Of a stretch of DNA of 64,000 nucleotides, positions 3,901 to 64,000 are shown in pieces (within the stretch, counting starts at the first letter, position 1; each line of letters starts with the position of its first letter). The notes beneath the pieces were generated by a model that ran no database searches, was not told where the DNA came from, and saw only the letters and a list, made by a program, of their open reading frames with translations. This DNA is from Marsupella aquatica (taxonomy: Eukaryota > Plantae > Marchantiophyta). Both the position numbers and the translations under genes were made by a program. The stretch lies in the NCBI GenBank assembly GCA_973895155.1, contig OZ316898.1, positions 21,029,292 through 21,093,291 on the forward strand. Direction: 5' to 3'.

Positions 3901-6900
3901 TGTGATGCCTAGCCAGGAATCACTAGGCCATATTAGGAGTAAAATAGGAGGGTATACAATAAACCATTAGTATAAGGGCAAAAAAACTGGGAAACCATAA
4001 ACAATTAAGGGCATACATGGAACCAAAGCCGAGGCGCAAGAGGAGTAACGGGTACTAGGTCACGATTAGGGTTAAGGCACGTAACCCTGGCAGCTGCCGG
4101 TAATCGGTACCAAGACATACAGTGCAGGCCGGAAGGAAGGGGGGGTAAGGCAAGGCAACCCAGGAGTGACAGCTCACATTCACACCTTGAGCAAGCAGAA
4201 GCCAATGACTATCAGCTGCAAAGGAGAACATGGGGGGGCATAAGCAGCTACTGAGCAATGCCAGAGAAGGGAATGAGCGATATCAATCAAGCAACACATT
4301 TTTGGGGATGCTTGTTTAAACGGGCAAGTGAGTACGTCGGGACTTACGAGGAGGAAGAATCAGGAAGAGTAGCCTGCGAGCGACAGGAGCTTGCTCGACT
4401 GTGGGAACTATAGAAGACGGCCTTCTTAGGAGGAGAATTCATCAAGGCTGAATTCTTGTGGACACCTACTGGCGACAAGCTTTACAACCTTCTAATTCAA
4501 GACAATAGAATTGTCGGCATTTGGCAAGCCATCAACAATTGCAACGACAAACATCGGGACCTGAAAGGTTGCACGGCGGCGTGGACAAAAGCAATAGTGT
4601 TGGGAGAATCTTCCGGTGCGGCTGAAATGAAGAGGAAGATGGCCAACAATGAAGAAAACACACCACCCAAGAGGACAAGGTTGGCAGTATCAAGGAAGCC
4701 GGCCGAACAGGGGAGGCAAAGAGAGGAGGAAGCCAAGGAACAAGAAGTCGACCCAGTCAATGTCATCCCTACCCGAGATGACACTTGGAAGGGATGGGCG
4801 GCAATAATACCACTGGCTGTGCAACTACATTTTGCACGAGAAGAGGATGCATGCTTTACAACCATGCAGACCAAGAAGTACTAGGGCTTCATGGCCGGAT
4901 CAGGCTTGGAGACCCTTTGTAAGACTGTCATGGCTGAAAAAGGAAGTGCCAAAATTGGACTTACTGGAATTTGTGGGATCATGGGACCACGAGACTAGCT
5001 CCACAAAGATCTATAGAAGGGACTTCTATCTCACCTCCAACGTGATTGCCGAAGTGTTTGGCTTGCCGATGGGCAACAAGGCTAAGGTAGAAGCCCGGAA
5101 GAACTTGCCGGACAAGGAGTTTAGATCGTTCCCCGGGCCGTCAACAAAGAATGGCTTTCTCCGAAGCACCTGCACCAACCCGCATATTGGAGAAATGATT
5201 GATTTCCTACGGGTAACAATGCATTGCAAAGTCTGGCCAAGGCCGGAGATTGGCAAGGCAAAGGTTTACCTGGCAGAGAGGCCAGACCCAAGCCGGGATT
5301 ACAATGGGTACCTCCTCAACCAACTCAAAAAGATATTGAGGGAGGAATAGCAGGTGATTAGCCAAGGGAGCGTGTCCCGGCTTGGTTATCACATGTTGTT
5401 GTTATGCCGGTATGCCCGGAGTCAAATCTTTGCCCCGATCCTTTCCCTACAGGCTAGAGCACCAGAAGAGGAATCAAAACCAAGGCCGGCAGCAAAGCAG
5501 TCCGACCCGCCTGACAGCCCCATGATAGCTCAGGTCTTCCGACAGGTGCCGGCAACCGGGCCGATGCAACAACCGGCCATGCAGAGCCTCCTACACATAC
5601 TGAAGAAAGAGAAGGCGGCTCTAGCACCAGAGGCAGTTAGTAGCAACGGGCACCAGAAGAACCGCTAGAGGAGAACCCATGGTCTGGGCCATAAAAAGAA
5701 GCAAAAAACAAGCCAGGGGTACGGATGTATGTAGGAGCCTCTAGTGAAGAATCAGAGGAACTGGGACCCAGGGTTCCCAGTCCTGAAAAGGAGTGCGGCA
5801 ATCAGGTGCGGGAGTCGGGAGGGCAAGCCGCACGCATGTATAATCCTTGCCAAGAGGCCGGGTTTACAGCTAGTCCTAGAGAGGACAAGCAGGCACCAGG
5901 ACGCCCAGAGGCCAGGGAATACATGGGGGAATACCATGAGGACTTGGGTTACGGGTCGGATCGCTCGGTACCAGGGTGCGGACCTGCGGCCATTTTATCC
6001 CCAAACTACCAAGAGTGGTCGGTGGGGATCCACAACAGGTGGGGAGCCCGGAGTCTCCCCCATCGGACGTACCTCCACCAATTTTTGACGGGAGACAACA
6101 GGCCGATCATAAGTTGCAGCAACAATTCAGTGACCTGGAGGAAGCAACCCTAGCCAAGGAGAAGGATTTGCTAGGCGGTGGATGGCCGGAGGACATTCGG
6201 CGACTTGCAGGGACTCAAGCCGGGCCTTTGCCCACATTTGAGGAGATATGGAGGGTGGCTTGGGAAAGAAGGCCACGTTGGGAGATGCCAACATCTCCTA
6301 ACCACTCCACCTATGCACGTTCCAGAGCCCTGGAGTATGGGAGGATGTGCGGGCTACTCGCCCTCGACATCTTTGGGGTAGAATTGGAGACAGGGCCTTT
6401 CGTTCATAAGGAGATGTTGGAGAAAAGCTGATTGGAGGACGCACTGGCCTTGGAGAGGATGAAGAAGGAGCTAGTCATCCGACGACTAAAAGAGAAGGAA
6501 GCCGAGGCTGGAGAGTTAAAGGTGGCCAAGCAGGCCTAGGACTATCATGCAGGGGCAACTAGCCCAGACTCAAGAAGACTTGACCGAAGCCCTCAAGGAG
6601 AAGGAGAAGTGGAAGCAAGAGGTGAAGAAGGTAGAGGCTTGCAACAGAGCCATAACCGAGGCCCAAAAGAAGGAGCGGGCATTGAAGGATGAGATCAAAG
6701 AATGTTGCAAGGCCCTTCATCAAAAACAAGCCAAACTTGATGAGACCCACTGGGGCATCGACAAGTTGAAGGGAGACCTGGAAGACCTGTCGCCCAACTT
6801 TCAAGCCGAGCTGCGGAAGAAGGATGACATGCTCGATCAAACCTACAACAAAATGAATAAGATCAAGTTTGATGTCGTCCATGAGCTCAACGCAGAGCTA

Positions 6901-8010
6901 AAGGCAACCCAAGAGGAGAGGGCGGCCTTACGGAAGGAGTTGGACGAGAACCTAGCAGAGTTGGAGCAAGCCCGTGGGGATTTAGACAAAACCCTGGTGG
7001 AGTTGGAGGACGCCACCCAAAAGATGGAGAATCTGCAAAGGCGGGCGAACAACCAAACTGAGCGGTTGAGGAAGCAGTCCGAGGAGCTAAATCGGCTGGC
7101 CGCAACAAGTGGACCCCCGATAGCGGCAACAGGGTTGCAGGGCGTGGTACTAACCAAGCAACAAGTCATGGTATCCTCACCCTTGCCGGAAGTAAGTGGC
7201 AAGGGGAAGGCACCAGCTGCTTGGGTGGGGAAGGACAAAAAGCGGAAGCCTTCTGGGTCAGGGAGCCATACCGTTTGTCAGGCCACCGTGGCTGAGGTGG
7301 AGAGCATGGCACCAGCCTTATGCAAGGTTGTGGCCGTCAAGGAAGCAGTCCGGGAGGTAGGCCAAGAAGACCAGTTGGGGGAGGCCATGACAGGCATCGA
7401 CCCAAGGTTGCCAACCATTGATCCGCATCAACCACAACCTTGGGAGGACGAGACAACCCGACTCATAGAACAAGCCTATGAGGAGGACCACTATGGCAAG
7501 GTAGCCGATGCCGGGAAGGAGAGTAGAGGAGCTGCAGGGGTGGGACCCCCACAGACAGAAGCCGGGCAGACAGAAGCCGGGGTGGTGGAAGCCGGACAGG
7601 CAGAAGCCGATGAAGCCTCGGCCAAAGGAGGGCAAGCATTGAGGCCTTAGTTCAACTAAGGAGAGAAAGTAAGTTTAGAAGCAGGGAGAGTTGGATGTGT
7701 TGAGCTAAGAGGGCTCTTAGCGGCTACCCAAGCTGATTGGGCATCATTTTGGGGGCGGAATCCAAACATACCTGAAGGAAGACTAATAGGAGAGATGGAA
7801 GTGAGGCCTAGAAATAAGCCGAGTACATATCTCATGACCCGATGAAGGATCTGTCCAGTATATGTGGTTAAAACGTTAGTACAATAGTGAGAGGAAAGCA
7901 GCGTCCCATGCCGATAAACCTTGGAATCGGCCTTGGCAAGCGAGAAACCGGTGGGAATCGGCTTGCTCAGGGAGGGTTCTTGGGTTTAGAGAGGCATGGG
8001 TCGCGCCACG
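3901..8010 (+). mobile_element. Unclassified TG..CA-type element, copy A (4110 bp, diverged subfamily)
   Basis: Starts TGTGATGCCTAGCCAGGAATCAC as in the other copies and ends GGCATGGGTCGCGCCACG (copy B ends GCCATGGGACGCACCACA). Flanked by CTCGG (3896-3900) and CCCGG (8011-8015), a 5-bp TSD with one mismatch. Collinear with copy B but lacks most of the sequence between the ORF end and the structured 3' block. Confidence 0.85.
4017..7650 (+). pseudogene. Disrupted ORF of copy A (PMD-like core plus coiled coil)
   Basis: ORF pieces 4456-4884, 4832-5350, 5354-5668, 5976-6431 and 6547-7650 align in order to the 1032-aa ORF of copy B (PTRDDTWKGWAA, LLEFVGSW, TCTNPHIGEMIDFLRVTMHC, KKRKPSGS). Broken by stops and frameshifts. 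Confidence 0.85.
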
Positions 8011-9300: not shown

Positions 9301-9309
9301 TATAGTTGA

Positions 9310-12192: not shown

Positions 12193-15100
12193 GGATGATT
12201 CACAAAATAGATTTGATAACATACATCAGTTTGATACACATTGAGAACCACTACCCAAACATCGATTCAAAAAACAATTAGACATTCTTGATACCAGAAT
12301 GACGTCGAACTCCATCGAAAAACTTCTATTTCTAGCTTTGCAAATAGATGGCAAGAATTACAATGATTGGTATATAGATGTGGAGGTCCATCTCACGGCA
12401 AAACAAATTGAAGAGGCCATACACACAGATGTTGGTGTGGATCAATACACAAAGGCACAAGCCTTGGTACTACTGAGACATCACTTAGTCGATCCTCTCA
12501 AACGCCAGTATAAGACTATACAATCCTAGATTACTCTGGGATGCATTGAAATCAAGATTCGAGCATATCACTACAATAAATGCTCTACAGGCTTGGGTTA
12601 CACTACGAGTACAAGATTTCAAATCAATAGATTTATACAACAGTGAGATGTTTAGAATCTCAAATGAACTCCAAATGTGTGGAGAACCAGTCAGTGATAA
12701 ACAGCAAATTGAGAAGACATTGGCCACATTTCACCCAACTAACTTGGTGATTTCAAATCAGTACAGGAACATGGCATTTACGACATACTCGGCGCTCATT
12801 GCACATATGCTTTTAGCAGAGCAAAATTCCATCCTCCTTATGAATAATGCAAAGGAGAGACCTCCGGGAACACTTCCTGTACCAACCAAAACTGAAACCA
12901 ACTTAGTTACACAGGATATGACAGCAGAAACGAATATGACAAATATGAATGGATACACATCAAGGGGGAGAGGTTCATACCGTGGCCGAGGAACAATGAG
13001 AGGGAGAGGTAATTTCTCCCAAAGAGGTGGAAACAATTCAAACTACAGAGGATGAGGTTGTGGAAGAATGAACAATGCAAATCAAAACAACTGGAAGAGT
13101 AACAGAGCGGATCATCAACAACAATATCGGGAGCGACAAAGACCTACCTCAAGTTATAAACAAGAGCATCCCATTACATGCAACAGGTGCGGAACTAAAG
13201 GGCACACCAAAAAGGTATGCCATGCACCTAGCCACCTAGTTCTACTTTATAAGAAGAGCTTGGATGAATCGCAATTCGAAGCTCATGGGGCTTATTTGGA
13301 GTCACCAGAGATTATACCAGAAATACATATGCTGGATTCATCATTAAATATTGAAGATCCAAATTTTTGCATTGTCGACAGCGGCACAACCCACACTATC
13401 CTTCGGGATAGTAAATATTTCCATGAAATCACCCCTTCACAAAGGAAAATAACAACTATCATGGGACCACATCAAATAGAGGAGGGTCATGGCAAAGCCA
13501 CAGTAGTTCTCCCAGAAGGAACAATAATCAACATCACATCAGCGATTTATGCCCCCAAAGCAACGAGAAACCTTCTCAACTTTAAAGACATAAGAGCGAA
13601 TAACCTACATATTCATACAGATATTCAAGACTCACGAGAAGTTCTACAAATAGTATCCCACTCATCAAAAGGCAGACTTGTTAAAGAAACTTTACAGGCT
13701 TACCCTTTAGGATACTATGCAACTCGAACTCAATGCTATCATGTTCAAACTGAATCACAGAACCTCACAGAGATCTGGCATAGACGGTTGGGACATCCTG
13801 GAACAAGCATGTTCCACATAATTGTCAATAATTCTAAAGGAGTATCAAAAGAAGTACATCCGAGAACATTCAAAGGACCATGCCTTGCTTGCTCACAGGG
13901 CAAGATGATTACTGCTCCCTCCAATTCTAAAACCAAAAATCACATACCTGCATTTCTTGAGAGACTTCATGCAGATGTTTGCGGACCCATCGATCCTCCA
14001 AGTGGCCCATTTCGCTATTTCCTGGTTGTCATAGATGCAAGCTCCAAGTGGTCAAGGGTTTCCCTATTATCAACCCGGAACCTCATTTTCTCAAGGATTC
14101 TGGCACACATTATACGGCTGAGAGCTCAATTCCCAGAATACCCAATTCGAACCCTCAGGACTGATGGAGCCGGAGAGTTCACATCAAAAACTTTTGATGA
14201 ATTTCGCCTCATCAATGGAATTGATTCACAATATAATGTACCTTATGTACATTTCCAGAATGGAATGGCTGAGTCACTTATTAAACGCATATAGCAAATA
14301 GCCCAACCTCTATTAATGCAATCTTCTCTTCCAGCGACTGCATGGGGACACGCAGTCCTACATGCTGCATCTCTTCTTCTATACAGACCATCAGCCTTCA
14401 ACAGCATTACACCTCATCAATTGGCATTTGGAAATTCTCCAGACATTTCACACTTGAGGATATTCGGATGTCAAGTCCTTGTACCAATCGTAGCCCCAAA
14501 ACGGACAAAATTAGGACTTTAGAGAAGAAAAGGCATCTATGTGGGATTCGACTCTACATCAATCTTCCGTTACATGGAACCTACCACTGCAGACATATTC
14601 AAAGCTTGATTTACAGATTGTCATTTTTATGAAACCATCTTCCCCACTCTGACATTACCGGAGGGCAAACAACAAACATTACCAAAAATATTCACCTGAC
14701 AAGCTAGTCTTGAACTTTGTCCTGATCCACACACAGATCAGGCTGAATTAGAAGTCAGAAGAATAATTCAACTTACACAGATTATGGAAGCCATACCTGA
14801 TTCATTCGCAGATACAGCGAATGTTACAAAATCCCATATCCCAGCAGCGAATACCCCATCCCGGATTCAAATTGGAACTCGGTTAGGTTCTGATCAACAA
14901 TTAAAACCCAAGAGAGGACGCCCTGTAGGGGCTGTCGATAAACAACTCAGACAAAGGCAAAAACTATCAACATCATCTGAAATGAGACCAGAAACCCATA
15001 CTCACATTTCAGAATCATATCACCCAGAGATAGCCATACATTATAATACCACTGGCCATATCTTAGATAGAACTAGAGTAATACCTGATGATCAATTTGC

Positions 15101-15435
15101 CTTTCATATATCACAGGATATTACTAACTTATCTGACCCAAAATCTGTCAAAGAAGCACAAAACCAAGCAGATTGGCCTAAATGGAAAATAGCCATGAAC
15201 TCTGAGTTAGACTCTTTGATCTCTCGAAAAGTATTTGGTCCTATAACCATTGCTACCCCAGACCAACACCTTACTGGGTACAGAATCATATTTACCAAAA
15301 AGAGGAATTCCCAAGGAGAAATTGTGAGATATAAAGCTCGACTCGTTGCAAAGGGATATACTCAAATCTATGGCACAGATTATGACCTAACTTATTCACC
15401 AGTCATGGATGTAACTACTTATCGCTACTTGATAG

Positions 15436-18400
15436 TGTGATGCCTAGACAGGAATCACTCGGCCGGTTAAGTGGGTAAAGCAGGAAGGCACCCTAGGAAC
15501 ACCTTAGTATAGGGACAAAACAAGGAAAATATAAACAATTAGGGGCAACCATGGAACCCGGGCAGAGGCCGGAGGTAAGGCTAAGGGTGAAAACCCGATT
15601 AGGGTTAGGGCGCGTTAAGCGTCGGCGGCTAGGAAGGATCAACGGGAAGAAGGACCGGCAGAGGAGAGGGGTAAGGAGCGCTTGCAGGAGATGGTGGCTC
15701 ATTTGCGAGCACGAACTAGGCAGACGACTACGGGAGGCCAACTACTGTCAGCTGCTTAGGCAAGCACTTGGGGAGAGAGTAGATACCGATGATCGACCTA
15801 AGGAGGGTATGAGCAGCGTCAATCAAGCGGCACATTTCTGGGGATGCCTGTTCGAACGGGCAACTGAGTACATCAAGACTTACGAGGACGAGGAGTCAGA
15901 AAGGGCAGCTCGAGAACGGCAGGAGCTCGCTCGATTGTGGGAGCTGCACAAGACGGCTTTCTTAGGAGGCGAACTCATCAAGGACGAGTTCCTGTGGACG
16001 CCTACTTCCAATCAACTCGACGATCTTCTGTTTTGCAAAGACAGCGTCGTCGGCATCCGAGAGGCCATCAAGAACTGCAACGACATACACTGGGAATTAA
16101 AGGGTAGCACGGAAAGGTGGACCCAGGCAATGGTGCTAGGAGAAACCTCCACGGCAGCAGAGATGAAGAGGAAGGGAGCCGTCAACGATGAAGCCACCCC
16201 GGCAAAAAGAATGAGGTCGGCGGCACCAAAGAAGCCAGCCGAGCAGCAGAGCAGGAGGCAGGGAGAAGCCGAAGAGGAGGAGGTCGATCCCATCAAGGCC
16301 ATTCCAACCAGGGATGACACCTGGAAGGGCTGGGCGGCAACCCTACCGGTGGAGGTGCAACTACATTTTGCACGGGAGGAGGATGCATGCTTTACGGCCA
16401 TGCAGACCAAGAAGTACCAAGGCTTCATGGCCGGATCCGGCTTGGAGGCCTTTGTAAGATTACCATGGCTGAAGCCGGAGGTACCGGAGTCAGACCTATT
16501 AGAATTCGTGGGGTCATGGGAACCCGAGACCAATTGCACGAGGATATATGGGAAGGATTTCTATCTTACTCCCAAGGTAATTGCCGAAGTGTTTGGCTTG
16601 CCGATAGGCAATAAGACCAAAGTTGATACCAGGAAGACCTTGCCTGACAAGGAGTTCCGGTCGTTCCCCGGGCCATCAACGAAGAATGGCTTCTTCCGGA
16701 ACACCTGCACCAACCCGCACATAGGAGAGATGATCGACTTCTTGCGGGTGACCATGCATTGTAACTTGCCGAGGGCAGAGATCGGCAAGGCACAGGTCTA
16801 TCTGGCAGAAAGGCCAGACCCAAGCCGGGACTACAACGGGTACCTCCTCAACCAATTGAAGAAGATCTTAAAGGAGGAGCAGCAGGTAATCGGCATGGGG
16901 AGCGTGTCGCGGCTTGGCTATCACATGCCGCTGTTGTGCCGGTATGCCAGAAGTCAGACTTTTGCCCCGGTACTTCCCCTGCAGGTAAGGGCACCCGAGG
17001 AAGCTCCAACGCCGAGGCCGTTGGCTGAGAAGCCTCAACCACCTGTTAGTCCTACGATCGAGCAGGTGTTTAGGCCCAGGAAGGAAGACTTGCCGATGCA
17101 GCAACCAGGCATGCAGAGTCTGCTGAAACTACTGGAGAAAGAAAAGAAATTGGCATCGGCAACAACAACGGCAACGGCAACAATGCAGGACACTACTACA
17201 GAGGTAGGCCTACACCGGCTCACAAGAGAAAACCCCTTTGCTGGAGACAAGAAGAGAATCAGGCCGGAATCCAAGCCAGGTGTTCGAATGTACGTGGGAA
17301 CCTCAAGCTCCGAATCTGAGGCAGAATTGCCTGAAGCTCCTACCGACGAAGAGGAGAGGGAGAAGCCGGACGTCCAAGAGGTAGAGGAGGCAGTGGAGGA
17401 CTGCAGCCATGATAATTCCGGCTATGGGTCGGACCATCACGTTCTAGGAGTAAGGACCTGTGGCCGGTTTGTCCCCACACTTCCAAGGGTAGTGCGAGGG
17501 GACCCCAACCAGCAGAGTAGCCCTGAGTCTCCCCCACCAGATGTTGCTCCCCCGAGCTTTGACGGCATAAAACAGACGGTGCAGGAATTTCAGGAGCGAA
17601 TCAAGCAGGAGGAAGAGGCCGCCCTGGCTAAGGAAAAGGATTTACCAGGAGGAGATTGGCCGGAGGACATCAGGCGGCTAGCCGAAAAAGGAAGCAAACC
17701 TCTAGCCACAATTGAAGAGATCCGCAGGACGGCTTGGGAGCAGAGGCCACGATGGGCGATGCCGATCACTTCTACTTACTCCACCTACGCTAAGAATAGA
17801 GCCATGGAGTATGGTGAGATGTGTGGGGAACTTGCGCTCGGCATCTTTGGAGAGGAGTTGGAGATAGGACCCTTTTTTCATAGGGAGCAGTTGGAGAAGC
17901 ACCAATTAGAAGAAGCGGTGGCTTTAGAGAGAAGCAAGAAGGACGAGGTCATTCGGCGGCTTAGGAGGATGGAAGCCGAGATTGAAGATCTAAGGGCGGC
18001 CAAGAAAGCCCAAGATGAACTGCGGATTAAACGACATGAGCTGAACATCATGCAGGGGCAGTTGGACACCGCGCAGGCTGATAATCAGAATATCAAGGAT
18101 AAACTGACTCAGACGCAGGAAGAGTTGGCCGACACGATCAAAGAGAGGGAGAAGTGGAAGCAAGAGCTGAAGAATACAGAGGAGGCCCACATAACAGCCA
18201 ACAGCCGGGCCATGGCGGAGACCCAAAGAAAGGAATGGGCGTTGAAAGGGGAGCTCGAGAAAATCCGCGGAGCCCTTGAGCAGAAGGAGGTCGAGTTAGG
18301 GAAATCCTATCAAGGGATTATGGCGCTGCAGCAGGAGCTTGCGTCCCTGACGGCCAGCTTCAAGGCCGACCTAAGGGAGAAGGACGAGATGCTCGAACAG

Positions 18401-20094
18401 ACTTACGCCAAGATGAACCAGATGGAGTCTGTCATCATTGCAGAGCTCGACAAGGAGCTAAGAGCAACCCAGGAGGAGAGGGCTACCTTGAAGAAGGAAT
18501 TGGAGGAAGCCCACAGGGAGCAGGAGGAGGCCAAAAACGAGCTGGAGGGGCACGTAAGGACCTGGATGAAACCCAAGAGGAGTTGGAGGAAATCACGAGG
18601 AAGATGGAGAACCTACAGCGGCGGGCCGACAACCAAACAGAGCGGCTGAAGAAACAAGCCGCAGTATTTAAATGCTTAGCTGCAGCAGGTCCATCTCCCG
18701 TTGGGACAAACCAGTTACCAGGGGTGGTAATTGCCGAAGGACAAGCCGTGCCAACTGCACCAGTGCCGGAAGTAAGTGGGAAGGGGAAGGGACCAGCTGC
18801 CGAGCCACCAACGAAGAAGAAGCGGAAACCTTCAGGGTCAAGGAGTAATACGACTTCACAGGCCGTGGTGATCAAGGAGGTAGACCCAGTACCGACCCCA
18901 GACAGGGTCACGGCTAAGGATCCAACTACCCTAGGGGAAGGGGAGGCCGAAGCCGAGGGAGTGGCTGAAGCCGAAGCCGTGGGAGTGGCTGAGGCCGAAG
19001 CCGTGGGTATTGCCGAGGCCGGTGTCGAGGCTGAAGCCGAAGGTGGACCCAGTCAGGCCGATGGAGAGTTGACTCGGTCAAGGGCAGGTAATCTGTCAGT
19101 AGGCGGGCCAACGGCAGTGGCTGAGGAGGAAGTGTTGGGGGCGTCCATTGAGGATCCACCACCGGTGTCGTGACGGTGCAAGGGCGCCGTTCCTTTTAGG
19201 GAGGGCGGACGTGGAGGGAGGAGGCGTGAGTGGGCAGGGCGGGCGCGGATCTCCACGTTTAGGATTAGGATCAGAACCAGGAGCGGCCCTGACACTTAGC
19301 TTAGTGGGATTGCGGTCCCACTGGTAGGAGCAACACTTGTGCTCCTGCCTTGCTGTACATAGGTAGATTCGGGCAAGTAGATTACTGTCAGGTAGATTAG
19401 GCTTACGATGCAAAGAATGGCGGATCCACTACCAAGATAAGTACCTGGGCAGCGGGGAGCTTAGGGCCTCTTCTTTAGCAAGTTTTTAGTTTGCACCAGC
19501 CGGGCTGGGATCAAGTAGTACGAGAAGCTCTCGGTTAGTCATACAGTGACCCTTGTGTATATTCATGTTTCCTCATGCCTAAGAGCTGAATAGAGTTGGC
19601 CTCACGGCTTAGTTCGCAGAACTTGTGTATGAGATGTACTGTTTGTATGGCAAGTGCATGGTATGACTCAGTCAGAATGAGTCATTTTGCTATTTGTGTG
19701 TCGCATTAACTTGTGTGAAGAGTGCCCACATCAACAGAAGGAAGGAAAGTAAGCAGGGGAGTGAGAGTTGGATGTGTCGAGCTGAGAGAGGTCTTAGCGG
19801 CTTAACCAAGCCTATTGGGGATCATTCCGGCGGCGGAATCCAAACATACCTAACAAGACGGAGGGGAAGACAGGGGAAGACAGGGGAAGGCTTATATTAG
19901 GCCGGCTACGTATCTCATGACCCGATGAAGGATCTGTCCAGTATATGTGTGTAAAATGTTAATAGTAGTAGTAGAAGGTTAGCAGCGTCCCATGCCGCTA
20001 AGCCGCGGAAACGGCCTCGCCAAGCACGAAACCTGCGGGAATCGGCTTGAGCTGGGGGGTTTCTTGGGTTTAGGGAGCCATGGGACGCACCACA
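15436..20094 (+). mobile_element. Unclassified TG..CA element, copy B (4659 bp, most intact)
   Basis: Perfect 5-bp TSD GATAG (15431-15435 and 20095-20099). Removing the element restores the copia RT frame ...TYRYLIAFAIQHKLLMHQLDV. Ends TGTGATGC / GCACCACA form a 7/8 inverted repeat. Confidence 0.95.
15551..19173 (+). CDS. ~1200-aa element protein: PMD-like domain, acidic linker, long coiled coil, NLS, low-complexity tail; one frameshift near 18550
   Basis: Open 1032-codon ORF 15551-18649 continued by the overlapping ORF 18583-19173. Copy A reads through this junction in one frame. FVGSWEPETNCTRIYGKDFYLTPKVIAEVFGLP resembles the plant mobile domain pattern WxPETHTF..GEMTITLxDVxxILGLP (by eye). 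Confidence 0.8.
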
Positions 20095-22129
20095 GATAGC
20101 ATTTGCAATCCAACACAAACTCTTAATGCATCAACTAGATGTGGTGACCGCTTATCTTTACGGTCAACTTGACACTGTGATCTATATGGAAGCTCCACCA
20201 CAGCTTATAGAACGTGTCAATTTCCATGCAAATTCAAATCATGATTCAAATATGCATAGCAACAAACATGCAAATGAATTTGACTACTTAAATAAGCTGG
20301 TACTCCACAATACCTCTAAAGCAATTGCATCCCAGGAAACTCCTGGAAATAGAAAGACCCGATTTGCTATTCAGGTTCTTCGTTCACTCTACGGCCTAAA
20401 ACAAAGTGGACGTACCTGGTACCAGCGTTTCAAAACAGAGATGATATCCATGGGATACAAAAATTCAGAGATTGCACCTTGTCTATTCATAAAGAATCAA
20501 AGACCTGAATTCATAAGAATTGCTATTTAAGTAGATGACCTCAACTTGTTTGGTACAAACAAGATGATGCAAGAATCTATACAAACGCTGAAAAGCGTAT
20601 TCAAAATGCGGGATTTAGGAAGAACTTCTTACTACATTGGACTTCAATTTGAACATTTACAAACGGGCATTCTCCTGCATCAAGAGACTTACACAAAGAA
20701 GGTGTTAAAACATTTCCATATGGACTCGTTAAAATTTGTGAAGTCCCCCATGGATATACGTACCTTGGACATACAAAAAGATATGTTCAGGAAGAGAGAA
20801 GATTTTGAACCTTTACTAGGTTCAGATATGCCATATCTTTCGGCTATCGGTGCTCTTATGTTTCTATCTAATCAAACACGACCGGACATAGCATTCGCGG
20901 TCAACTTACTCGCAAGACACAGCGCACAGCCCACTATCAAACACTAGAATGGCATTAAAAGGATATTTTGTTATCTTATTGGTACATCCGACTTTGGTTT
21001 ATACTTTCCTTATGATGCAGATTACAGTTTAACAGGATATGCTGATGCTGGCTATCTATCCAATCCACAAGATGGTAAATCTCAAACTCGATATATTTTC
21101 TTGATGGGCCCGACACCAATTTCATGGTGCAACACCAAACAGACTCTTACTACTACTTCTTCCAATCACTCTGAAATAATTGCTCTCTATGAAGCAAGTC
21201 GTGAATGTTTATGGCTACGTAAAGTCTTAGATCTTATTTTGATCAACACAGGTAAACTGAAATTATCCAAACCTACAATACTCTTCAAAGATAACATGCC
21301 TTGCATAACTCAAATCAAATCCGGATTCATCAAAGGTGAACGTACAAAACATATTGCGCCTAAATTCTTTTTCTCACACAAACAACAAGGAAAAGAAATT
21401 GATGTACAATGGATTCCAAGAAATCAGAACAAGGCAGACATCCTTACGAAATCTCTACCACCGTCCCTCCATCAATCACTAACTTATTCAATAGGAATAC
21501 GCAGCGTAACAAAGCTTTTGCAGGATACAAAGATTGAGGGGGAGATTTGACTTCCCTGATGAACGTTGCGAGAACAAACAGCACCAGCCTGATAGAACAT
21601 AAGTCGTTCGACTAACCCCTCGCGATCGACTTCCTCAAGAGCCACAGATAAAACTTGATGAATCCTCAAGAAGACGCACTGGCATCTCTCCGATTGACCC
21701 TATCACAAAGACCTAGGTAGGGAAAATGCATCTCTAACCATTGCAGCTCACCCCGGCATCGACAGTACTTGCGTGAAAGAGAACCCGCCATTCCACTCTC
21801 ATACAACCGACTTCAACACCACTTACACTCGATGGACTTCTTGCAGAACAACACCACAACCCATAATACAAACCTAAAAACATATACTCTTAACGCAATT
21901 AGTCTAGAAAAGTAAGAAATAGACAAATGCAAATACAGATTACTTTAGAAAGACACAACTTTATTTAAAAAAAAAACTTAAAGGGATGCAGGGTGGCAAT
22001 ACTCTTTCCTTCCACCAAAGAAAGTAGGAAAGGTTTTAATGAGGTTGCACCCCCATCCCCTACCTTCATATACATTGATAGAAGATTGGTTGTCATATTT
22101 TGCCTAAAATGATAACATCCAAGGGGGAG

Positions 22130-23390: not shown

Positions 23391-26300
23391 TGTGATGCCT
23401 AGCCAGGAATCACTAGGCCAGTTTAAATGGTAAAATCAAGAGTGTACCCTGGAAACCCATTAGTATAGTAACCAAAACATGGAAAATATAAACAATTAAG
23501 GATGACTATGGAACCCGAGCCGAGGCTGGAAGTAAGGATGCCGGGGGAGGGAAAACGATTAGGGTTAGGGCGCGCTCGGTGCCGGCGGCTAGGAGTAACC
23601 AAAGGGAGGGAAGACCAGGCAAGGGGGGGTAAGGACCGCTCGCAAGGAATGGTGGCTCATTTGCAAGCACAAACTAAGCAGGCGACTACGGGAGGCCAAC
23701 TACTATCAGCTGTTAAGGCAAGCACTCGGGGTGGGAGCAGATACCGACGATCAACTCAAGGAGGGTATGAGCAACGTAAATCAAGCGGCATATTTTTGGG
23801 GATGCCTGTTTGAACGAGCAGCTGAGTACATTGGGACCTACGAAGACCAAGAATCGGAAAGAGCAGCTTGAGAACGGCAGGAGCTCGCTCGACTGTGGGA
23901 GCTGCAGAAGTCTGCCTTCTTAGGAGGAGAACTCATCAAGGCTGAATTCCTGTGGACACCTACTAGCAACGAGCTAGACAATCTTCTGTTTTGCGAGAAC
24001 ATAATCGTCGGCATCCGGAAAGCCATCAACCGTTGCAACGACATCCACTGGGAGTTGAAGGGTGGCACAAAGCCTTTGTGAAACTACCATGGCTGAAGCC
24101 GGAGGTGCCGGATTCAGACTTATTGGAATTCGTGGGATCATGGGAGCCCGAGACCAATTCCACAAGGGTGTATGGGAAGGATTTCTATCTCACTCCCTGG
24201 ATGATTGCCAAAGTGTTTGGCTTGCCGATGGGCAACAAGACCAAAGTGGATACCAGGAAGACCTTGCCTGACAAGGAGTTCCGATTGTTCCCAGGGCCAT
24301 CAACGAAGAATGGCTTCTTCCGGAACACCTGCACCAACCCGCACATTGGAGAGATGATTGATTTCTTGCGGGTGACCATGCATTGCAACTTGTTGAGGGC
24401 AGAGATCGGCAAGGCGCAAGTCTACCTGGCGGAGAGGCCAGACCCAAGCCGGGACTACAACGGGTACCTCCTCACCCAACTAAAGAAGATCTTGAAGGAG
24501 GAACAGCAGGTCATCGGCATGGGAAGCGTGTCCCGGCTTGGCTATCACATGCCGCTATTGTGCCAGTATGCCCGAATTCAGATCTTTGTGTGGACTAGCT
24601 CAAAATAGGGTATGTAAGAAACTCATCATTTTTTTGCTTTTTGTACAAGGATAGTAAGAAATACATTTTAGCATTAGTAAAGTACTTAGGGTTTGTAACC
24701 CTAAGTCACTAAGGAAGGATAGTAGGGAATCATGGAAGGGAAAAATATGTTGTTCTAAGAAGATGTAAAGGGGTAAGTGAGGTCTTTATGGTAGGGCAGC
24801 AAATATTCTTTCCTTAGTTAGGATAGGCGACTAAGTCGGGACCGGAAAATGACCCAACACCTGACATCTAATTTTTGGCTAATATTTCTCCCATGGGTGA
24901 GGGGAGGTCCCTAGGGAACCCTGAAAAATTATGAAGTGAAGTAGGGTCTCAACCTAGGAATTGTGAGTATTTTGGCTGAACTTAAAATAACCATCTAGCG
25001 GGTCCCGGAGAAATTAGCCAAGGGGTAGATATTTTTGGTTCTAGGTTAAAATTGGGTATAGTATAGCCCATAATATCCCTTGAAAGTCTAAGAAGTAGTT
25101 TATCAACTTTGGTTAGTTTTTGGGAGCACCTCAAAGATTGGGAAAAGTAATGAAAACTATAGATGTGGGAAAACTTAGGTATTTTTAGAAAAGTCAATAC
25201 GGGGTATTTAGTGAGTTTGACAAATTCAGGAGGGAGTACTATGTCCAAGGATCCCATAACTATGCTCAGAAGTTCTTTTAGACCTATGGGTGATTTTTGG
25301 CATGGCTTTAAAAAGGGCTAGTACAAAGTTTTCTCCCGCGAGAGAACCAAATTTTTTCTAAGTGTGGAAACGCGACGACGCGGCTGCGACGAGGCTAGCA
25401 CGAGGCAGGAAGGAGTCTAAGCACGAGGGCGGCTACGAGTTGAGTGATTAGACTATGAAATCACATGGTGGAAAATCTATGGTGGGCTATTGTTGCTCCA
25501 GCACGAGATCAGCTAACTTAGGCAATGTGAAATTGATGCAGCAGCTGTCTAGTAAACGTGATCTCTGCCTGGATGCTGACAAATTGAGAAAGGGCAGGCA
25601 CTACATAGGCTATAGAGCTTGCTGCCAAGGAAAACGTGGATGCTGCTGGCTGATTCAATGTGCTGGCTGATTCAATCTGCGGGTAGGTAAGCTTGTGCTG
25701 AGTAAATTCAAAAGAGAATGGCTGGCAATTGAGAATCCATGTGCTGAGAATTGACCAGCTGCTGCAATTTACAGCAGTTGTGAGCTATGGCTACTCCTGA
25801 GCAAATCAATCACAATCCAGCCCAACAATTAGAAGGGACTCAGTCATAAATCAGAGGAGAAGCTACTGCAAAAATCAGTCAAGCAATTAGTCAAGGAATC
25901 ATCCTCAAAACAGCTGCACAATCAGGCATGATGCTAAGCTCTATAGCTTCTGGAAAGACTGGACCTTATGAGGAACTCTCTCAGGTCGACACCTGGTATA
26001 CACATAAGTGTAAACCGGGACCTATGACAGTGTAATTCGGAGCCCTTTTGCACATAAGGGATTGAGAGAAGGAAAATATCATAACTTGAGCTAGGGGCAT
26101 CCGTTGGGGCCCATATTTTTTGTGTCGATTCAAGGGAAGGTAAAACATCGTTGAGTGAAGGTAGAAACCCAGGAAAAGAAATACCTAGAGATATTTTAAA
26201 CCGTCGCCATGGGGGGGTCCCGCTAGCTTGCAAACGGGAGCTGCCAAGGGGGAATGAATACCTGATGTAGGGCCAAACACTTTGGGTACCCATACCACTT

Positions 26301-29300
26301 TAGTAAGGCTCTAGGGAAGGGTACTTACCTTTGGTCGAAGGTGCAAGGCCATCAAGTTAATAGAAGTGAGTATAGATGGTAGTTTTCTTAGGGTAGTATA
26401 AGGGGTACAAGTCAAATAAGGCCAACTTTGACTAGGCATAACTTTGGACTCAAGTACTCTTTTTGCGAGCTTTCAAGTGCGTTGGAAAGCTGATGAAGAG
26501 GACCATAAGTGGGAGCAGGTTTGGAGGTCAAAGCATGCAACTCATGTGCAGCATATTCTAGGGCTTGGAAGGAGTCAAGCAATAGGTTGTAGAGTGAGCT
26601 ATGAACTATAGTTTGGACTTGGTGTGTTAGGAGGACTTGGGGGAGGTATAGTTGGACCCCAGGTCAAGCTTGGTGTGGTGTGAAAGGAGAATAGTATATA
26701 AGGTGAAAGATTTCATTTGTTGAGGACCAGAAGTCTCATTCTTAAGTGTAAGCTCTACCTTGCAAGTTGGGGCTAAGATTGAGAACGGGAAGGAGGTCCA
26801 TGCTTAGTGTGGAGAGTGTGTAGTGACCTTTTATGTAAGGATTGAGTATACAATAAAAGGATTCTTCCAATCTTCATTGTGACCACTAAGTGTGACTAAA
26901 TGTGAAGTGTTTGAGAGCAAGAGAAGAGTCCATGCTAGGATGCAATCTTGGTCTAATCGTGAAGGGGATGTGCTGGTACACAACCAAGGCCAGGGAGGCA
27001 AGGTTAAGGTGGAGCACTACTTTGGGATTTAGAGAGGATTGTATCTTGAGGGTGGAAAGTACCTTGCTTTGTGTGAGAACCAAGAGGAAGAGTTCTTTGC
27101 AAGAAGAGTTTTTCTAAAGCTCAAGGGGGTGTGTGGACCCAAACCAAGGCCAGGGGGGGCAAGGTTAAGGGGTAACACTACCTTGAGGATCTTGAGGGGA
27201 CTTAAGCTTGAAGAGAAGAGTACTTGGGGTTCTTGGGTGTTTGTTTTAGGGTCTACTCTAAGGTGACAGCTTGGAGTGGATATCCCCCTTGCTAATCCTT
27301 GGAGTAGAGGAGAGAGAAAGAGTGGGAGTGCAAAAGTAGTCAAGGTGACTACCTCTCTAGAAGTGGAGAGTTGAAACTACTTGTGTATGGTGTACTTAGA
27401 CCTTGCATGCACATTTCAGAAGTTTTGTCAATCCTTTGTGACCCTGGTATGACATGGAGCAAGTATTAGGTAGTTTTTTAGGGGAAAAGATGCTTAAGCT
27501 CCTTGACAAGTGTTTGACACTTTGCCCCAGTACTTCCCCTACAGGCAAGGGCACCAGAGGAAGTTCCGGAACAGAGGCTGGTAGCAGAGAAACTCAACCA
27601 GCCCGCCAGTCCTACAATTGAGCAGGTGTTTCGGCCAAGGAAAGAAGACTTGCCGATGCAGCAACCCGACATGCAGAATCTGTTGAAATTACTTGAGAAG
27701 GAGACGAGAACGGCACCGGCAACGCCACCAGTACAGGATACTTCCCCAGAAGTCGGCCTAAGCCGACTTACCAGGGAAAACCCCTTTAGCGGGGCCAAGG
27801 AGAGGAGGAGGCCGGAACACGAGCCGGGAGTTTGAATGTATGTGGGAGCCTCAAGCCCCGAACCGAGGCAGAGCAGCCTAAGGCTCATGCCCACGATAAA
27901 CAGAGGGAGAAGACAGCCTGGAAGCCGGAGGAGGAACCAGGGCCCGTGAGCTGTGAGGCCATTTTCACGGCAAGACCAGGAGAACAGAGGGGGAAGCCGG
28001 TAGTCCAAGCAGCGGAGGAGGCGGTAGAAGACTACGAGAATGACGACTCCGGCTACGAGTCGGACCATCATGTTCCAGGAGTGAGGACCTGTGGCCGGTT
28101 CATCCCCACACTTCCAAGAGTAGTTCGAGGGGACCCCACCCAACAGAGTAGCCTCGAGTCTCCCCCACCAGATGTCGCTCCCCCAAGCTTTGACGGCATA
28201 AAACAGACGGCACAAGAGTTTCAAGAGCGACTTAGGGAGGAAGAGAAGGCAGCCCTGGCTAGGGAGAAAGATTTACCAGGAGGAGATTGGCCAGAGGACA
28301 TCAGGCGGTTTGCCAAAAAAAAAGTAGCTCTCCAGCCATGATAGAAGAAATCCGCAAGACGGCTTGGGAACAAAGGCCGCGATGGTTGATGCCGATGACT
28401 TCTACTTACTCCACCTATGCTGAGGATAGAGCCATGGAGTATGGAGATATGTGTGGGGAACTTGCGCTCAGCATCTTTGGGGAGGAGTTGGAGCAGGGAC
28501 CCTTTTTCCAGAGGGAGATGTTGGAGAAGCGCCGATTAGAAGAAGCGGTGGCTTTGGAGAGAAGCAAGAAGGACAAAGTCATCTATCGGCTTAGGGCAAG
28601 GGAGTTAAGGTAGAAGACCTGGCGGCAGCCAAGAAAGCCCAAGATGAGCTGCGGATTAAGCGGCATGAGCTAAACATCATGCAAGGGCAATTGGATGCCG
28701 CTCAATCTGGCAATCAGATTATCAAAGATAAACTGACTCGGACCCAAGGAGAGTTGGCTGGCGCGGTCAAGGATAGGGAGGAGTGGAAGCAGGAGCTGAA
28801 GGACGTAGAGGAGGCCCACATAACCGCCAACAACCGGGCCATGGCGGAGACCCAAAGAAGGGAGAGGGCGTTGAAGGGAGAGCTCGAGGATATCCACGGA
28901 GCCCTTGAGTAGAAGGAGGCCGAGTTAGGGAAATCCTATCAAGGGATTATTATGCTACAGCTGGAGCTTGCATCCCTGACAGCTAGCTTCAAGGCCGACC
29001 TCCATGAGAAAGACGACTAGCTTGACCAGACTTATGCCAAGATGAACAAAATGGAGTCTGAGGTCGTAACGGAGCTTGACAAGGAGCTAAGAGCAACCCA
29101 GGAGGAGAGGGCTACCTTAAAGAAGGAGTTGGAGGAAGCCCAGAAAGAGTTGGAAGAAGCCCAGAAGGAGCTGGAGGAGGCGCGCAAGGACCTGGACAAA
29201 GTGCAAGAGGAGTTGGAGGAAAGCACGCGGAAGATGGAGAACTTATAGCGGCGAGCCAACAACCAAACGGAGCGGCTGAAGAAACAAGCCGCAGTATTTA

Positions 29301-30727
29301 AGTGCTTGGCTTCATCAGGTCCAACTCCAAGTGGGGCAACCAAGTTGCCAGGAGTAGTACTGGCCAAAGGACAAGCCAAGACACTCTCACCGGTGCCGGA
29401 GGTAAGTGGCAAGGGGAAGGGACCAGCTGCCAAAATAGGGAAGAAGAAGAAGCGGAAACCTTCCGGGTCAGGGAATAACACGGCTTCTCAAGCCATTGTG
29501 ACCAAGGAGGTAAACCTGGCACCAACCTCAGGCAAGGTCACGGCAGAAGATCCAACTGCCCTAGTAGGCGGGGATGGCAAGGGCAGAGTCGGGATGCTCA
29601 GTGATGAGGCCGGTATACCAAATCCACCACTAGAAGATGTCGGGGAGGCCGTAGCCGTATCAGAGGCCGTGGCCAATGCTAAGGCCAAAACCGACGGTGG
29701 ACCTAGTCAGGCCGATGGAGAGTTGACTTGGTCCGGAGCAGGTAATCTGTCAGAGGACGGACCTACGATAGTGGCTGCGGAGAAAGTGTTGGGGGCGTCC
29801 ATTGAGGATCAGCCACCACTGCCATGACGGTGGTGGGGGGCCGCTCCTTTTAAGGGGGGCGGACGTGGAGGAAGGAGGCATGAGTGGGCGGGCTCAGATC
29901 TCCAAGTTTAGAATTAGGATCAGACCATGGAGGCGGCCCTGACACTTAGCTTAGTGGGATTACGGATCCACTGGTAAGAGCAACACTTGTGCTCCTGCCT
30001 CGCTATACATAGATAGATTACAGTTAGGATAGATTAGGCTTATGCTGCAAGGAATTGGGCGGATCCACTGCCAGGATAAGTACTTGTGTAGCGGGGAGTT
30101 CAGGGCCTTCTTCCTTAGCAAGTTTTTAGTGCACCATCAGGGCTAGGATCAAGTAGTAAAAGAAGCTCTCGGTTAGTTATACTGTGACCCTTGTGTATAT
30201 TCATGTTTCCTCATGCCTAAGAGATGAATAGAGCTGGCCTTACGGCTTAGTTCGCAGATCTTGTGTATGAGAAGTACTGTTTGTATGGCAAGTGCATAGT
30301 ATAACTCAGTCAGAAGGAGTCATTTTGCTATTTGTGTGTCGCATTAACTTGTTGAAGATTGCCCACAACAACCAAGAGAAAAGAGTAAGCAAGGTAGTAA
30401 GAGTTGGATGTGTCGAGCTGAGAGAGGTCTTAGCGGCTTACCCAAGCCAGATGGGGATCATTCCGGCGGCGGAATCCAAACATACCTAAAGCAGACAAGG
30501 AGAGGAAGACAAGGGAAGGCCTAGATTAGGCCGACTACGTATCGCATGACCCGATGAAGGATCTGTCCAGTATATGTGTGTAAAATGTTAATTGTGTTAG
30601 TAGTAATGAGTTAGCAGCGTCCCATGCCGCTAAGCCACGGAATCGGCCTCGCCAAGGGCAAAACCTGCGGGAATCGGCTTGTGTAGGGGGGTTTCTTGGG
30701 TTTGGGGAGCCATGGGATGCAACAACA
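23391..30727 (+). mobile_element. Unclassified TG..CA element, copy C (~4.4 kb plus nested 2.9-kb solo LTR); ORF pseudogenised
   Basis: Starts TGTGATGCCTAGCCAGGAATCAC and ends GCCATGGGATGCAACAACA. Flanks CCCGT (23386-23390) and CCCCT (30728-30732). ORF remnants 23502-24588 and 27525-29827 match copy B, with a ~330-bp deletion near 24070. Confidence 0.9.
24589..27519. mobile_element. Solo LTR of an unrelated family (2931 bp)
   Basis: TGTGGAC...TTTGACA ends with perfect TSD CTTTG (24584-24588, 27520-27524). Excision restores CAGATCTTTGCCCCAGTACTTCCCC as seen in copy D. No convincing coding capacity. Internal ~160-bp duplication near 26980/27140. Confidence 0.85.
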
Positions 30728-59731: not shown

Positions 59732-62700
59732 CACTAGTAGAAACCGCCCCATTTCGTGACCAGACCACTTGTGATAGGGGTGACCACGCAAGTGCAAACT
59801 TTGAACATCGGTCTTATTTTTGAGGCGCCATAAGACTCGATAGTCATCAGTAGTCATGAGTATGACAACCTAAGACCATTGAACTTTTTAAAAATCATGA
59901 TCTATTGAATGAGCGATTCAAGTATGACTACATAGTCATACTTAGTCAACATAAGACAATGGCCAATAGTAAGCCAAGTCCAAATTTAGTCAACAAAATT
60001 GACTTGTCCATTAATTTTCATTGTGGCCATTGAACACTACGACAAAATAATGTAGTGCCATATGCCTGGTTAAGGGAAATTTACCCGACCCCATACACAT
60101 TCTGAGCCATGGGATTACGCTTTACACAGCCATTTCATGAACTATATGCAAGGGGCATAAGGGTTTGCTAGGGAGGCTTTTTTGTGGTTTGGGGTTACAT
60201 GAAGTGCAATTTAGGCCTAACTCATCCACATGCATATAACCCTTCCTGCCAAAGTTTAGGGTTGGTTTTAGCAAGACACCTAAAGGGGGTTTAGGGGGGG
60301 GTTATATCACAAGGGTGTGGGGGGTTATATCTCACGGGGGAGGGGGTTTAATCAAAGGACACACACCATTGGATGGAGTTCATCGCCACCATCCATAACT
60401 TTTCCGTTCCTGCGTCCCGTTTAGTTGCACATGTCATCCCTTCCTTCGATTGGGTCCCGAGAGAGTTTGCAAACACCAAGGCGGAAGTGCATCATCTCTT
60501 TGCTTGTGGCTGGCTAGGGTGCCCATTTCCTTCACTTTCCCTTGATGTTTACGAGTGCTTTTGTTTTACTTTCAGCTCATTGTGGTGGTGTGGGTCCCGT
60601 CCATTGCTGTGTGTTCCATCGCTGCATGCTGGACACATCTGAGTCTTCCGTTGCTCAAGTATGCATTCATAGCTGCTTCAAGGGAGGTGATCACTACTGC
60701 TGCGGAAGGAGGGAGTCAGTCGGGAGTTTTGCTACTGCTGCGGAAGGCAACGCTGAAGCTTTACTCATGCGGGACCTGTGTGGGAGGCATAAAGACTTAG
60801 GATCAAAGCCCAACGCTGTCTAATCTCACTGCTTAGGGTGAAAGGAACTATATTTTGCATTATGGAGGTTGGGTCCCAACGTGATCAACGTCTGTTGTGG
60901 CGCAGTCCACCTCAGGTGCTGCGATTCATGTAAGTTGGTTTGCTGCTGTAGGCAATTGGTATTTTATGGCACATTAGTGGCTAGGCTTATAAGCTGTGGA
61001 CTCGGATGAATATGCATGTTTGGTGAAAGCGTCACTCAGTTTGGTCATTTGTGTCTTCGGTGTGGTGTTTTGTATGCTGCCCTATTTTACCACCACCTTA
61101 CTGTTCACATTGTGGCTCCATTCGCACCACATTTTGCATTGTAGAGGTCCTATAGCCTTCTCTGAAACCTCACACTCACACTCACACCATAAATTGTGTC
61201 TAACTTAGTGACAAGACCTCTATCTGCACAGATGCCAACCTTGCCGCTGGAATCCATATGTTCACAGTGCTTGCTCGGGCAGACTGGGAGCCAAGAGTTT
61301 GGAGCCAGGAGCTGAGGGTTGAGGGATCTTGGAGCTACAAGGTGGGACTTTAGTTGGGAGCCGCGAGCTGATACCACGCAACTGTCAGTGAGGTCATTTC
61401 AGTTGTTGGGTGCCGGAACTGATCACTTCCCTTTGCTTCATCGCTCATTTCCTTTGCACATGATCCCATTATTTAGCCATCTATAAGCTGCGATAGTCAT
61501 TTAGTCTATTTCCACCCACATTCGTCCTTGAAGATGTTTTAGGTCTCAGGCTAGACTCTGTGATGCCTAGCCTGGAATCACTAGGGCAGTTTAAATGGTA
61601 AAGTCTGGAGTGTACCCTGGAAACACATTAGTATAGTAACCAAAACATGGAAAATATAAACAAATAAGGGTGACTTTGGAACCCGAGCCGAGGCCGGAAG
61701 TAAGGATGCCGGGGGAGGGAAAACGATTAGGGTTAGGGCGCGCTCGGTGCCGGCGGCTAGGAGTAACCAATGGGAGGGAAGACCAGGCAAAGGGGGGGGT
61801 AAGGACCGATCGCAAGGAATGGTAGCTCATTTGCAAGCACGAGCTAAGCAAACGACTACGGGAGGCCAACTACTATCAGCTGCTTAGGCAAGCAATCTGG
61901 GTGGGAGCAGATACTGACGATCAACTCAAGAAGGGTATGTCAAGCAACGTCAATCAAGCGACACATTTTTGGGGATGCCTGTTTGAACGGGCAGCTGAGT
62001 ACATTGGGACCTACGAAGACCAAGAATCAGAAAGAGCAGCTCGAGAATGGCAGGAGCTTGCTCGATTGTGAGAACTGCAGAAGTCTGCCTTCTTAGGAGG
62101 AGAACTCATCAAGGCTGAATTTCTGTGGACACCTACTGGCAACGAGCTAGACGATCTTCTATTTTGCGAGAACAGAATCGTCGGCATCTGGGAAGCCATC
62201 AACCGCTGCAATGACATCCATTGGGAGTTGAAGGGTAGCATGGAGGGGTGGACAAAGGCAACAGTGCTAGGAGAAACATCCACAACATCGCTATGAAGAG
62301 GAAAGGGGCTAACAACAAAGAGACCACCCTTGCAAAAAGAACGAGGTCGGCGGCACCAAGGAAGCTAGTAGAGCAGGGAAGAAGGAGGCAGGCAGAAGCC
62401 AAGGAGGAGGAGGTTGACCCCATCAATGTCGTTCCAACAAAAGATGACACCTGGAAGGGCTCGGCGACGATCCTCCTCGAGGAAGTGCAATTACACTTTG
62501 CACGAGAAGAGGATGCATGCTTTACGACTATATATGCAGACTCAGAAGTACTAGGGCTTCATGGCCGGATCCATCTTGGAAGCCTTTGTGAAATTACCAT
62601 GGCTAAAGCCGAAAGTGCCGGATTCAAACTTATTAGAATTCATGGGATCATGGGAGCCCGAGAACAATTCCACAAGGGTGTATGGGAAGGATTTCTATCT

Positions 62701-64000
62701 CACTCCCCGAGTGATTGCCGAAGTGTTTGGCTTGCCGATGGGCAACAAGACCAAAGTGGATACCAGGAAGACCTTGCCTGACAAGGAGTTCCGATCGTTC
62801 CCAGGGTCATCAACAAAGAATGGCTTCTTTCAGAACACCTGCACCAACCCACACATTGGAGAGATGATCAATTTCTTGTGGGTGACCATGCATTGTAACT
62901 TGCCGAGGGCAGAGATCGGCAAGGCACAGGTCTACCTGGCGGAGAGGCCAAACCCAAGCCGAGACTACAACGGGTACCTCCTCACCCAACTAAAGAAGAT
63001 CTTGAAGGAGGAACAGCAGGTCATCGGCATGGGAAGCGTGTCCTGGCTTGGCTATCACATGCCGCTGTTATGCCGGTATGCCCAAAGTCAGATCTTTGCC
63101 CCAGTACTTCCCCAGTAGGCAAGGTCACTAGAGGAAGTTCCGGAACAGAGGCCGGTAGCAGAGAAACCCAACCAGCCCGCCAGTCCTACAATCAAGCAGG
63201 TGTTTCGGCCAAGGAAAGAAGACTTGCCAATGCAGCAACCCGACATGCAGATTCTACTGAAATTACTGGAGAAGGAGAAGAGGACGGCAACGGCACCAGT
63301 ATAGGACACTTCCCCAGAAGTCGGCCTAAGCCAACTTACCAGGGAAAACCCCTTTACCAGGGCCAAGGAGAGGAGGAGGCCGGAACACGAGCCGGGAGTT
63401 TGAATGTATGTGGGAGCCTCAAGCCCCAAATCCGAGGTAGAGCAGCCTAAGGCTCCTGCCCACGGTAAATAGAGGGAGAAGACAGCCTGGAGGTCGGAGG
63501 AGGAACCAGGGCCTGTGAGCTGTGAGGCCATTTTCATGGCAAGACCAGGAGAACAAAGGGGGAAGCCGGTAGTCCAAGCAGCGGAGGAGCCGGTAGAAGA
63601 CTACAACCATGACGACTCTGGCTACGGGTCGGACCATCATGTTCCAGGAATAAGGACCTGTGGCCGGTTTATCCCCACGCTTCCCAGAGTCGTTAGAGGG
63701 GACCCCACCCAACAGAGTAGCCCCGAGTCTCCCCCAACAGATGTCGCTCCCCCGAGCTTTGACGGCATAAAACAGACGGCACAAGAGTTTCAAGAGCGAC
63801 TCAAGGAGGAAGAGAAGGCAGCCTTGGCTAGAGAGAAAGATTTACCAGGAGGAGATTGGCCAGAGGACATCAGGCGGCTTGCCAAAAAAAGAAGCAACCC
63901 TCTAGCCATGATTGAAGAGATCCGCAAGGCGGCTTGGGAACAGAGGCCGCGGTGGTTAATGCCGATGACTTCTACTTACTCCACCTATGCTAAGGATAGA
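59732..64000 (+). mobile_element. Second CACTA element, left end (extent beyond ~60100 uncertain)
   Basis: CACTAGTAGAAACCGCCCC followed by TGACC/AGTCAT subterminal motifs (59750-60050). Predicted TSD CTA. Confidence 0.65.
61559..64000 (+). mobile_element. Unclassified TG..CA element, copy D (runs off the window; ORF disrupted)
   Basis: Starts TGTGATGCCTAGCCTGGAATCAC and is nearly identical to copy C over the 5' end and ORF. Left flank GACTC (61554-61558). Confidence 0.92.

Follow-up and report, generated by a model that had tools for sequence, protein, structure and literature searches.

A gene under purifying selection inside a likely solo long terminal repeat of Marsupella aquatica, with a candidate PMD/DUF1985-type domain

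We analysed a 64,000-nt stretch of the Marsupella aquatica genome (Marchantiophyta; contig OZ316898.1, positions 21,029,292 to 21,093,291; hereafter the window), in which a preliminary description had singled out a conserved protein segment resembling the plant mobile domain (PMD). This segment is the core of a gene of ~1,120 codons that was under purifying selection and is carried by a repeated unit with defined ends. According to our best explanation, for and against which we see about equal weight when it is taken as a whole, the unit is a likely solo long terminal repeat (LTR) of a large Gypsy retrotransposon, and the gene product is a predicted nuclear accessory protein that combines a likely PMD/DUF1985-type domain with a coiled coil.

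Four copies of the unit (A–D) were recovered in the window by BLAST with the sequence around the core; A, B and C are complete, and copy B served as the reference for all comparisons (Table 1). All four copies start with TG; B and C end with CA, A with CG. The three complete copies are each flanked by a 5-bp target-site duplication (TSD), matching at 5/5 letters once and at 4/5 letters twice (chance 0.001 and 0.016 each). Copy B interrupts the reverse transcriptase of a Copia element, in which the RVT_2 match ends at profile position 67 and restarts at position 68. In total, the unit family occupies 15,612 window bases (24%).

Table 1. Positions of the unit copies, of their flanks and of the parts of copy B in the window
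Feature	Position	Strand	Remarks
Copy A, diverged subfamily	3901..8010	+	TSD CTCGG/CCCGG; ~490 bp of 3' non-coding part missing
Decayed Copia element hosting copy B	~12300-21600		gag, protease, integrase, reverse transcriptase
Copy B left TSD	15431..15435	+	GATAG, 5 bp
Copy B, 4,659-bp unit	15436..20094	+	ends TGTG...CACA; TSD; likely solo LTR
Copy B right TSD	20095..20099	+	GATAG, 5 bp
Copy C	23391..30727	+	TSD CCCGT/CCCCT; 334-bp internal deletion; broken by 2.9-kb insertion at 24589-27519
Copy D	61559..64000	+	cut off at window end
Non-coding leader	15436..15808	+	no codon-position bias; likely promoter and 5' untranslated region of the gene (putative role)
Start ATG and conserved N-terminal block, ~100 aa	15809..16108	+	dN/dS 0.14-0.27; no Pfam match
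Conserved core domain	16328..16960	+	helix, beta-hairpin, helix, then helices; likely remote PMD/DUF1985-like fold
Acidic/proline-rich low-complexity linker and second, moderately conserved block	16961..17980	+	dN/dS 0.17-0.62; no Pfam match for 17450-17980
Predicted long coiled coil	17981..18600	+	sub-threshold coiled-coil Pfam matches; frameshift of copy B near 18.55 kb
C-terminal part	18604..19173	+	coiled-coil end, KKKRK basic patch, low-complexity tail, stop
3' non-coding region	19174..19984	+	UG-rich stretch; TATA-like box ~19938-19955, in 3/3 copies reaching this end (putative roles)
Conserved 104-nt hairpin at right end	19985..20088	+	likely R/U5 leader structure

The peptide motifs quoted in the preliminary description can all be read in frame in copy B (16328-16960), inside a listed open reading frame (ORF) of 1032 codons. 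Codons 1-86 of this ORF lack third-position bias, as does the 3' non-coding control, and an ATG at 15809 is common to all four copies; the real gene therefore extends from 15809 to 19173. As this start lies 86 codons in, the segment first numbered as residues ~260-470 corresponds to residues ~174-384. Copy B carries a frameshift, and ORF 6547-7650 of copy A crosses the equivalent position in a single frame. Stops in B's frame number five in A, four in C and five in D, such that all four copies are damaged.

The core is, as first described, the best-conserved coding part among the copies: its nucleotide identity to B is 81% in A, 90% in C and 88% in D, compared with 75%, 83% and 83% in the N-terminal block and 64%, 81% and 81% across the remaining ORF. 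Over the final 350 non-coding bases, identity to B nearly reaches that of the core (78/88%). Changes in the core fall mostly on third positions (24/16/73 for B vs A), and the synonymous difference noted earlier, CGG GAG in B vs CGA GAA in A and D, was found at 16373-16378, where copy C is deleted. The ratio of nonsynonymous to synonymous rates (dN/dS, NG86), which had been expected to lie well below 1, was 0.09, 0.12, 0.15, 0.16, 0.16 and 0.35 in the core for the six pairs of window copies, with every bootstrap interval below 1. The core is not alone in this: in 27 region-pair tests spanning the entire ORF, dN/dS ranged from 0.07 to 0.62, with a single interval, that of the C-D linker, including 1. 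Purifying selection thus acted on the gene over its full length and not on the core alone. Every copy of the unit brings with it a gene that has been under selection, and the copies represent remnants of lineages in which selection acted during their spread.

Upstream of the gene, the motif TTAGTATA (15504), a TATA-like ATAAACAA (15531) and a telobox-like TTAGGGTTARGGC (15599) are each present in all four leaders. The telobox-like motif (15599, 4066, 23559 and 61727) has been kept in leaders that are merely 59-80% alike; teloboxes are plant promoter motifs with a link to Polycomb. The shared TATA-like motif suggests that the gene may have its own promoter. At the opposite end of the unit, the hairpin has z-scores of -5.3 (B), -6.3 (A) and -1.9 (C), with changes on both sides in 2 of 40 predicted pairs.

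If the unit is an LTR, some copies must run on into a shared internal region. In public contigs, loose ends at 20094 were found in run X2 (33 records, agreement 0.39) and in run X3, from another organism and study (4 records, agreement 0.58), and the two agree over 11 consecutive letters, beginning 4 bases beyond the end; nine of these letters are retained in X2 at lower stringency (37 records, agreement 0.37). This continuation, which has no close match within the window, would fit a shared internal region. It bears some likeness to the primer-binding site for tRNA-Asn that non-chromovirus Gypsy elements use, but the canonical TGG is absent from its majority line; the window contains no tRNA gene for comparison. 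The right-end continuation appeared in two of six runs, among 24 of 1,447 and 24 of 815 rows listed. The left end, on the polypurine-tract side, yielded one weak row (4 records, agreement 0.52).

The lengths involved are within the known range: LTRs of plant non-chromoviruses reach ~5 kb, and TSDs measure 5 bp in 93.4% of elements (PMC6317226, in excerpt). We infer with considerable confidence that the unit is a solo LTR made up of a 4.5-kb U3, in which the gene lies in sense orientation, and a short R/U5. In line with this, no LTR pair lies inside the unit, internal direct repeats longer than 18 bp are lacking in copy B, and the unit proteins have no gag or pol match in Pfam. A different reading, which we regard as improbable, is that the 4.66-kb unit is a complete non-autonomous element, spread by an integrase-like transposase, as are Ginger-type DNA transposons, or by a route free of recombination. 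The three complete copies indeed stand alone between their TSDs, the ends bear short imperfect inverted repeats (8/10 letters by eye), and no gag-pol was seen. However, long inverted repeats were not found (0 pairs of at least 60 bp), and a continuation beyond the right end common to two studies is unexpected for a complete element. Moreover, a preponderance of solo LTRs has precedent in Retrosat2 (LTRs >3.2 kb), with 429 solo vs 162 complete copies, a ratio of 2.6:1 that rises to as much as 10.5:1 on single chromosomes (PMC3485330, in excerpt).

The unit is a very abundant repeat. In public contigs, the summed depth over the unit, which is not a copy number, was 167,000-948,000 in run X1 and 297,000-1,293,000 in X2, with flanks at 700-3,500, placing the unit about two orders of magnitude above the flanking Copia sequence in two runs. 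Parts of the unit were present in 15 of 17 listed runs (10 studies), and at least half of it in six. In addition, X2 contigs connect the right end (20094-20096) back into the unit body, which suggests that unit copies insert into one another. Copy C is itself host to a second, unrelated 2.9-kb TG...CA unit (24589-27519) with a perfect 5-bp TSD, CTTTG. This nested unit is likely another solo LTR, because it contains no terminal repeat pair and had no Pfam match in the two frames tested.

As to the identity of the core, the preliminary description had pointed to PF10536, PF20167 and PF04195 and to Athila/Tat extra-ORF proteins. Profile membership did not bear this out: across six window proteins, 15 hits from a search for core relatives and six cluster members, Pfam gave no row for PF10536 at gathering score, for Transposase_28, for Transposase_32 or for ATHILA ORF-1, and no match to DUF1985 or DUF287. 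Of the 15 hits (E ≤ 0.001), 14 are real. The cluster member P0022, an unnamed 787-aa relative, has a ~22% identical core followed by a low-complexity linker and a long coiled coil; its cluster also occurs in NCBI, ENA and JGI metagenome sources. The protein family has no name.

The N-terminal PMD pattern W-x-P-E-T...T-x8-G-L occurs ungapped in copy B and was absent from all 20,000 shuffles, although it had been taken from the motif of the preliminary description itself. Across 15 relatives, its letters P, E and G are variable; the retained positions are F60, T71, G75, L80, F89 and L91. C-terminal PMD motifs (W-E, W-x-P-Y, R-Q-F-G) were not visible by eye against an excerpt of the PMD alignment supplement, and the family core measures ~190 aa before low-complexity sequence sets in, vs ~300-380 aa for PMD. 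The core has not earned the PMD label.

Predicted structure leaves room for part of the original proposal. The core model (predicted local distance difference test ~70-80) consists of a helix (54-62), a hairpin (70-79) and a second helix (82-88). In a structure search, VANC21-DNA ranked 2nd of 48,161 with a 151-residue alignment, the longest among the 25 matches listed, although the match lies below significance; DUF1985 was the best named family in an Atlas ranking (leads 0.89 and 0.88). Given that the PMD of MAIN/MAIL1 and the DUF1985 of VANC are reported as structural homologs (10.1101/2024.09.27.615353; PMC13547354), it is plausible that the modelled core shares their superfamily. Alternatively, it might be an unrelated, lineage-specific domain, with the motif likeness and the VANC21 rank arising by chance. 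We find this rather doubtful, since the PMD proposal preceded the searches in which the one solved structure tied to PMD in the literature consulted came second, and an independent method put DUF1985 first among named families.

The protein contains basic patches (KRMR, KRIR and KKKRK) and no hydrophobic segment, the maximum Kyte-Doolittle 19-residue means being 0.84 and 0.98; it is therefore likely to be soluble and nuclear. An Env-like protein, as discussed for some plant extra ORFs (eORFs) from their sense orientation and coiled coil, features shared by the present gene, is very improbable given these hydrophobicity maxima. At 47500-48130, the window contains a distantly related and decayed version of the gene's N-terminal block, preceded by a different upstream sequence whose end, judged by eye, is a pyrimidine-rich AG; no core domain was detected at this site.

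The history of the family may be sketched as follows. Full elements would have been inserted by integrase, and LTR-LTR recombination, the usual host route for deleting retrotransposons, would have left the solo copies. Placed within an exceptionally long U3 and equipped with a TATA-like promoter of its own, the gene would be transcribed from the upstream promoter of the LTR or from the 3' end of genomic RNA, and each LTR would represent a promoter-gene-terminator cassette. In a working model that we put forward tentatively, by analogy with VANC21 acting for VANDAL21, binding to family DNA or chromatin would fall to the core and oligomerisation to the coiled coil, with the effect of keeping the copies transcribed. 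The main rival to this chromatin model retains the LTR with its gene and has the protein serve RNA or particles instead of acting on silencing, in genomic RNA export, nuclear import of the pre-integration complex or target-site choice. A scaffold or import role would suit the long coiled coil and the basic patches, and retroviral accessory roles have been proposed for plant Gypsy eORFs, none of which has a known function (PMC7264820, in excerpt). VANC-like tandem target arrays were not found, as no 8-9-mer reached at least three copies in the non-coding parts of both B and C. We rate this rival as possible at best, because the sole structural and language-model leads are VANC, DUF1985 and PMD, whose studied members act on chromatin.

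The surprising part is the position of the gene inside a likely LTR. Extra ORFs are common in plant Gypsy elements, and the literature consulted places them beside gag-pol or in between, not across an entire LTR; in the literature searched, with most subscription journals outside the search, we found no plant retrotransposon whose LTR is filled by a long ORF under selection. A gene so placed is present twice per element and outlives solo-LTR formation, so that removal of the element leaves the gene behind, and each LTR left behind would still carry a gene, one that may protect its own family from silencing. In its broadest form, which we consider unlikely, the argument would be that the dominant Gypsy family of the host carries a VANC-like anti-silencing gene in its LTR, that every solo LTR acts as a self-contained cassette protecting the family in trans, and that the PMD/DUF1985 fold already served retrotransposons before there were seed plants and thus predates MAIN/MAIL1 and VANC. 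If the domain does belong with PMD/DUF1985, it bears on whether PMD arose in retrotransposons or hosts, a question left open in PMC5418596. Were the host a moss, the gene would also be at odds with the reported absence of eORFs from moss Tat-like elements (PMC4408406). The family's abundance makes it a testable candidate source of a retrotransposon anti-silencing factor.

Elsewhere in the window, 49425-52739 (-) encodes an intact 1,104-aa pentatricopeptide repeat (PPR) protein of the PLS-E-DYW type, which acts in RNA editing. The gene contains seven repeats of 303 bp, of which six are 84-91% alike, and its sequence resembles that of moss PPR genes. A decayed CACTA element (Transposase_21, DUF4218) lies at ~33100-37100, and at 58400-59830 there is a remnant that resembles gag, carries a CCHC zinc knuckle and apparently has no relation to the unit. 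Tandem arrays with periods of 83 and 578 bp occupy 8870-12330 and 22390-22560, an 88-bp part of the 578-bp-period array being found again at 22.4 kb.

Among known systems, the Tat/Ogre elements (Tat lineages III-V; PMC4408406, PMC6317226, both in excerpt) are close in several respects: like the unit, they combine very long LTRs, 5-bp TSDs and a likely non-chromovirus Gypsy origin with an accessory ORF encoding a globular domain ahead of a coiled coil. Their eORFs, however, are placed before gag or, in antisense, near the 3' end, whereas the present ORF fills an LTR-like unit and has no PF10536 match. In excerpts of the respective sources, PMD plus coiled-coil eORFs belong to Tat lineages IV and V, with moss Tat-like elements lacking an eORF (PMC4408406), PMD occurs in 57% of Ogre elements (PMC6317226) and is the commonest non-canonical Gypsy domain of one survey (PMC9289625), Retand holds antisense TRP28 ORFs in its internal region (PMC11963269), and extra ORFs of the internal region have been reviewed (PMC7264820). 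Retrosat2, RIRE3 and RIRE8 (PMC3485330, in excerpt) likewise have LTRs >3 kb, many solo LTRs and an extra ORF without known function, but their ORF0 lies upstream of gag-pol, separate from the LTR, and is grass-specific.

VANC21, the anti-silencing protein of the Mutator-like element VANDAL21 (DUF1985 + DUF287, PDB 9LNK; PMC5735166), is also a transposon-encoded accessory protein, to which the core has the weak fold match described above; coiled-coil oligomerisation is reported for VANC21 (PMC13547354) and a coiled coil is predicted here. VANC proteins reside in DNA transposons and are reported to be dicot-specific, whereas the unit has TG...CA ends, a 5-bp TSD and no transposase that we could find. 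MAIN/MAIL1 (PMC5418596) share the ungapped W-x16-T-x8-GL spacing of the N-terminal motif; in contrast to the unit gene, they are host genes with a PMD of ~350 aa, and in the unit family the WxPET letters are not conserved. In layout, the closest likeness is to sag/naf of mouse mammary tumour virus (PMC9412291, in excerpt), a whole accessory gene within U3 with an LTR-internal promoter; there, the element is a vertebrate retrovirus and the protein is unrelated, so that the likeness is one of layout only.
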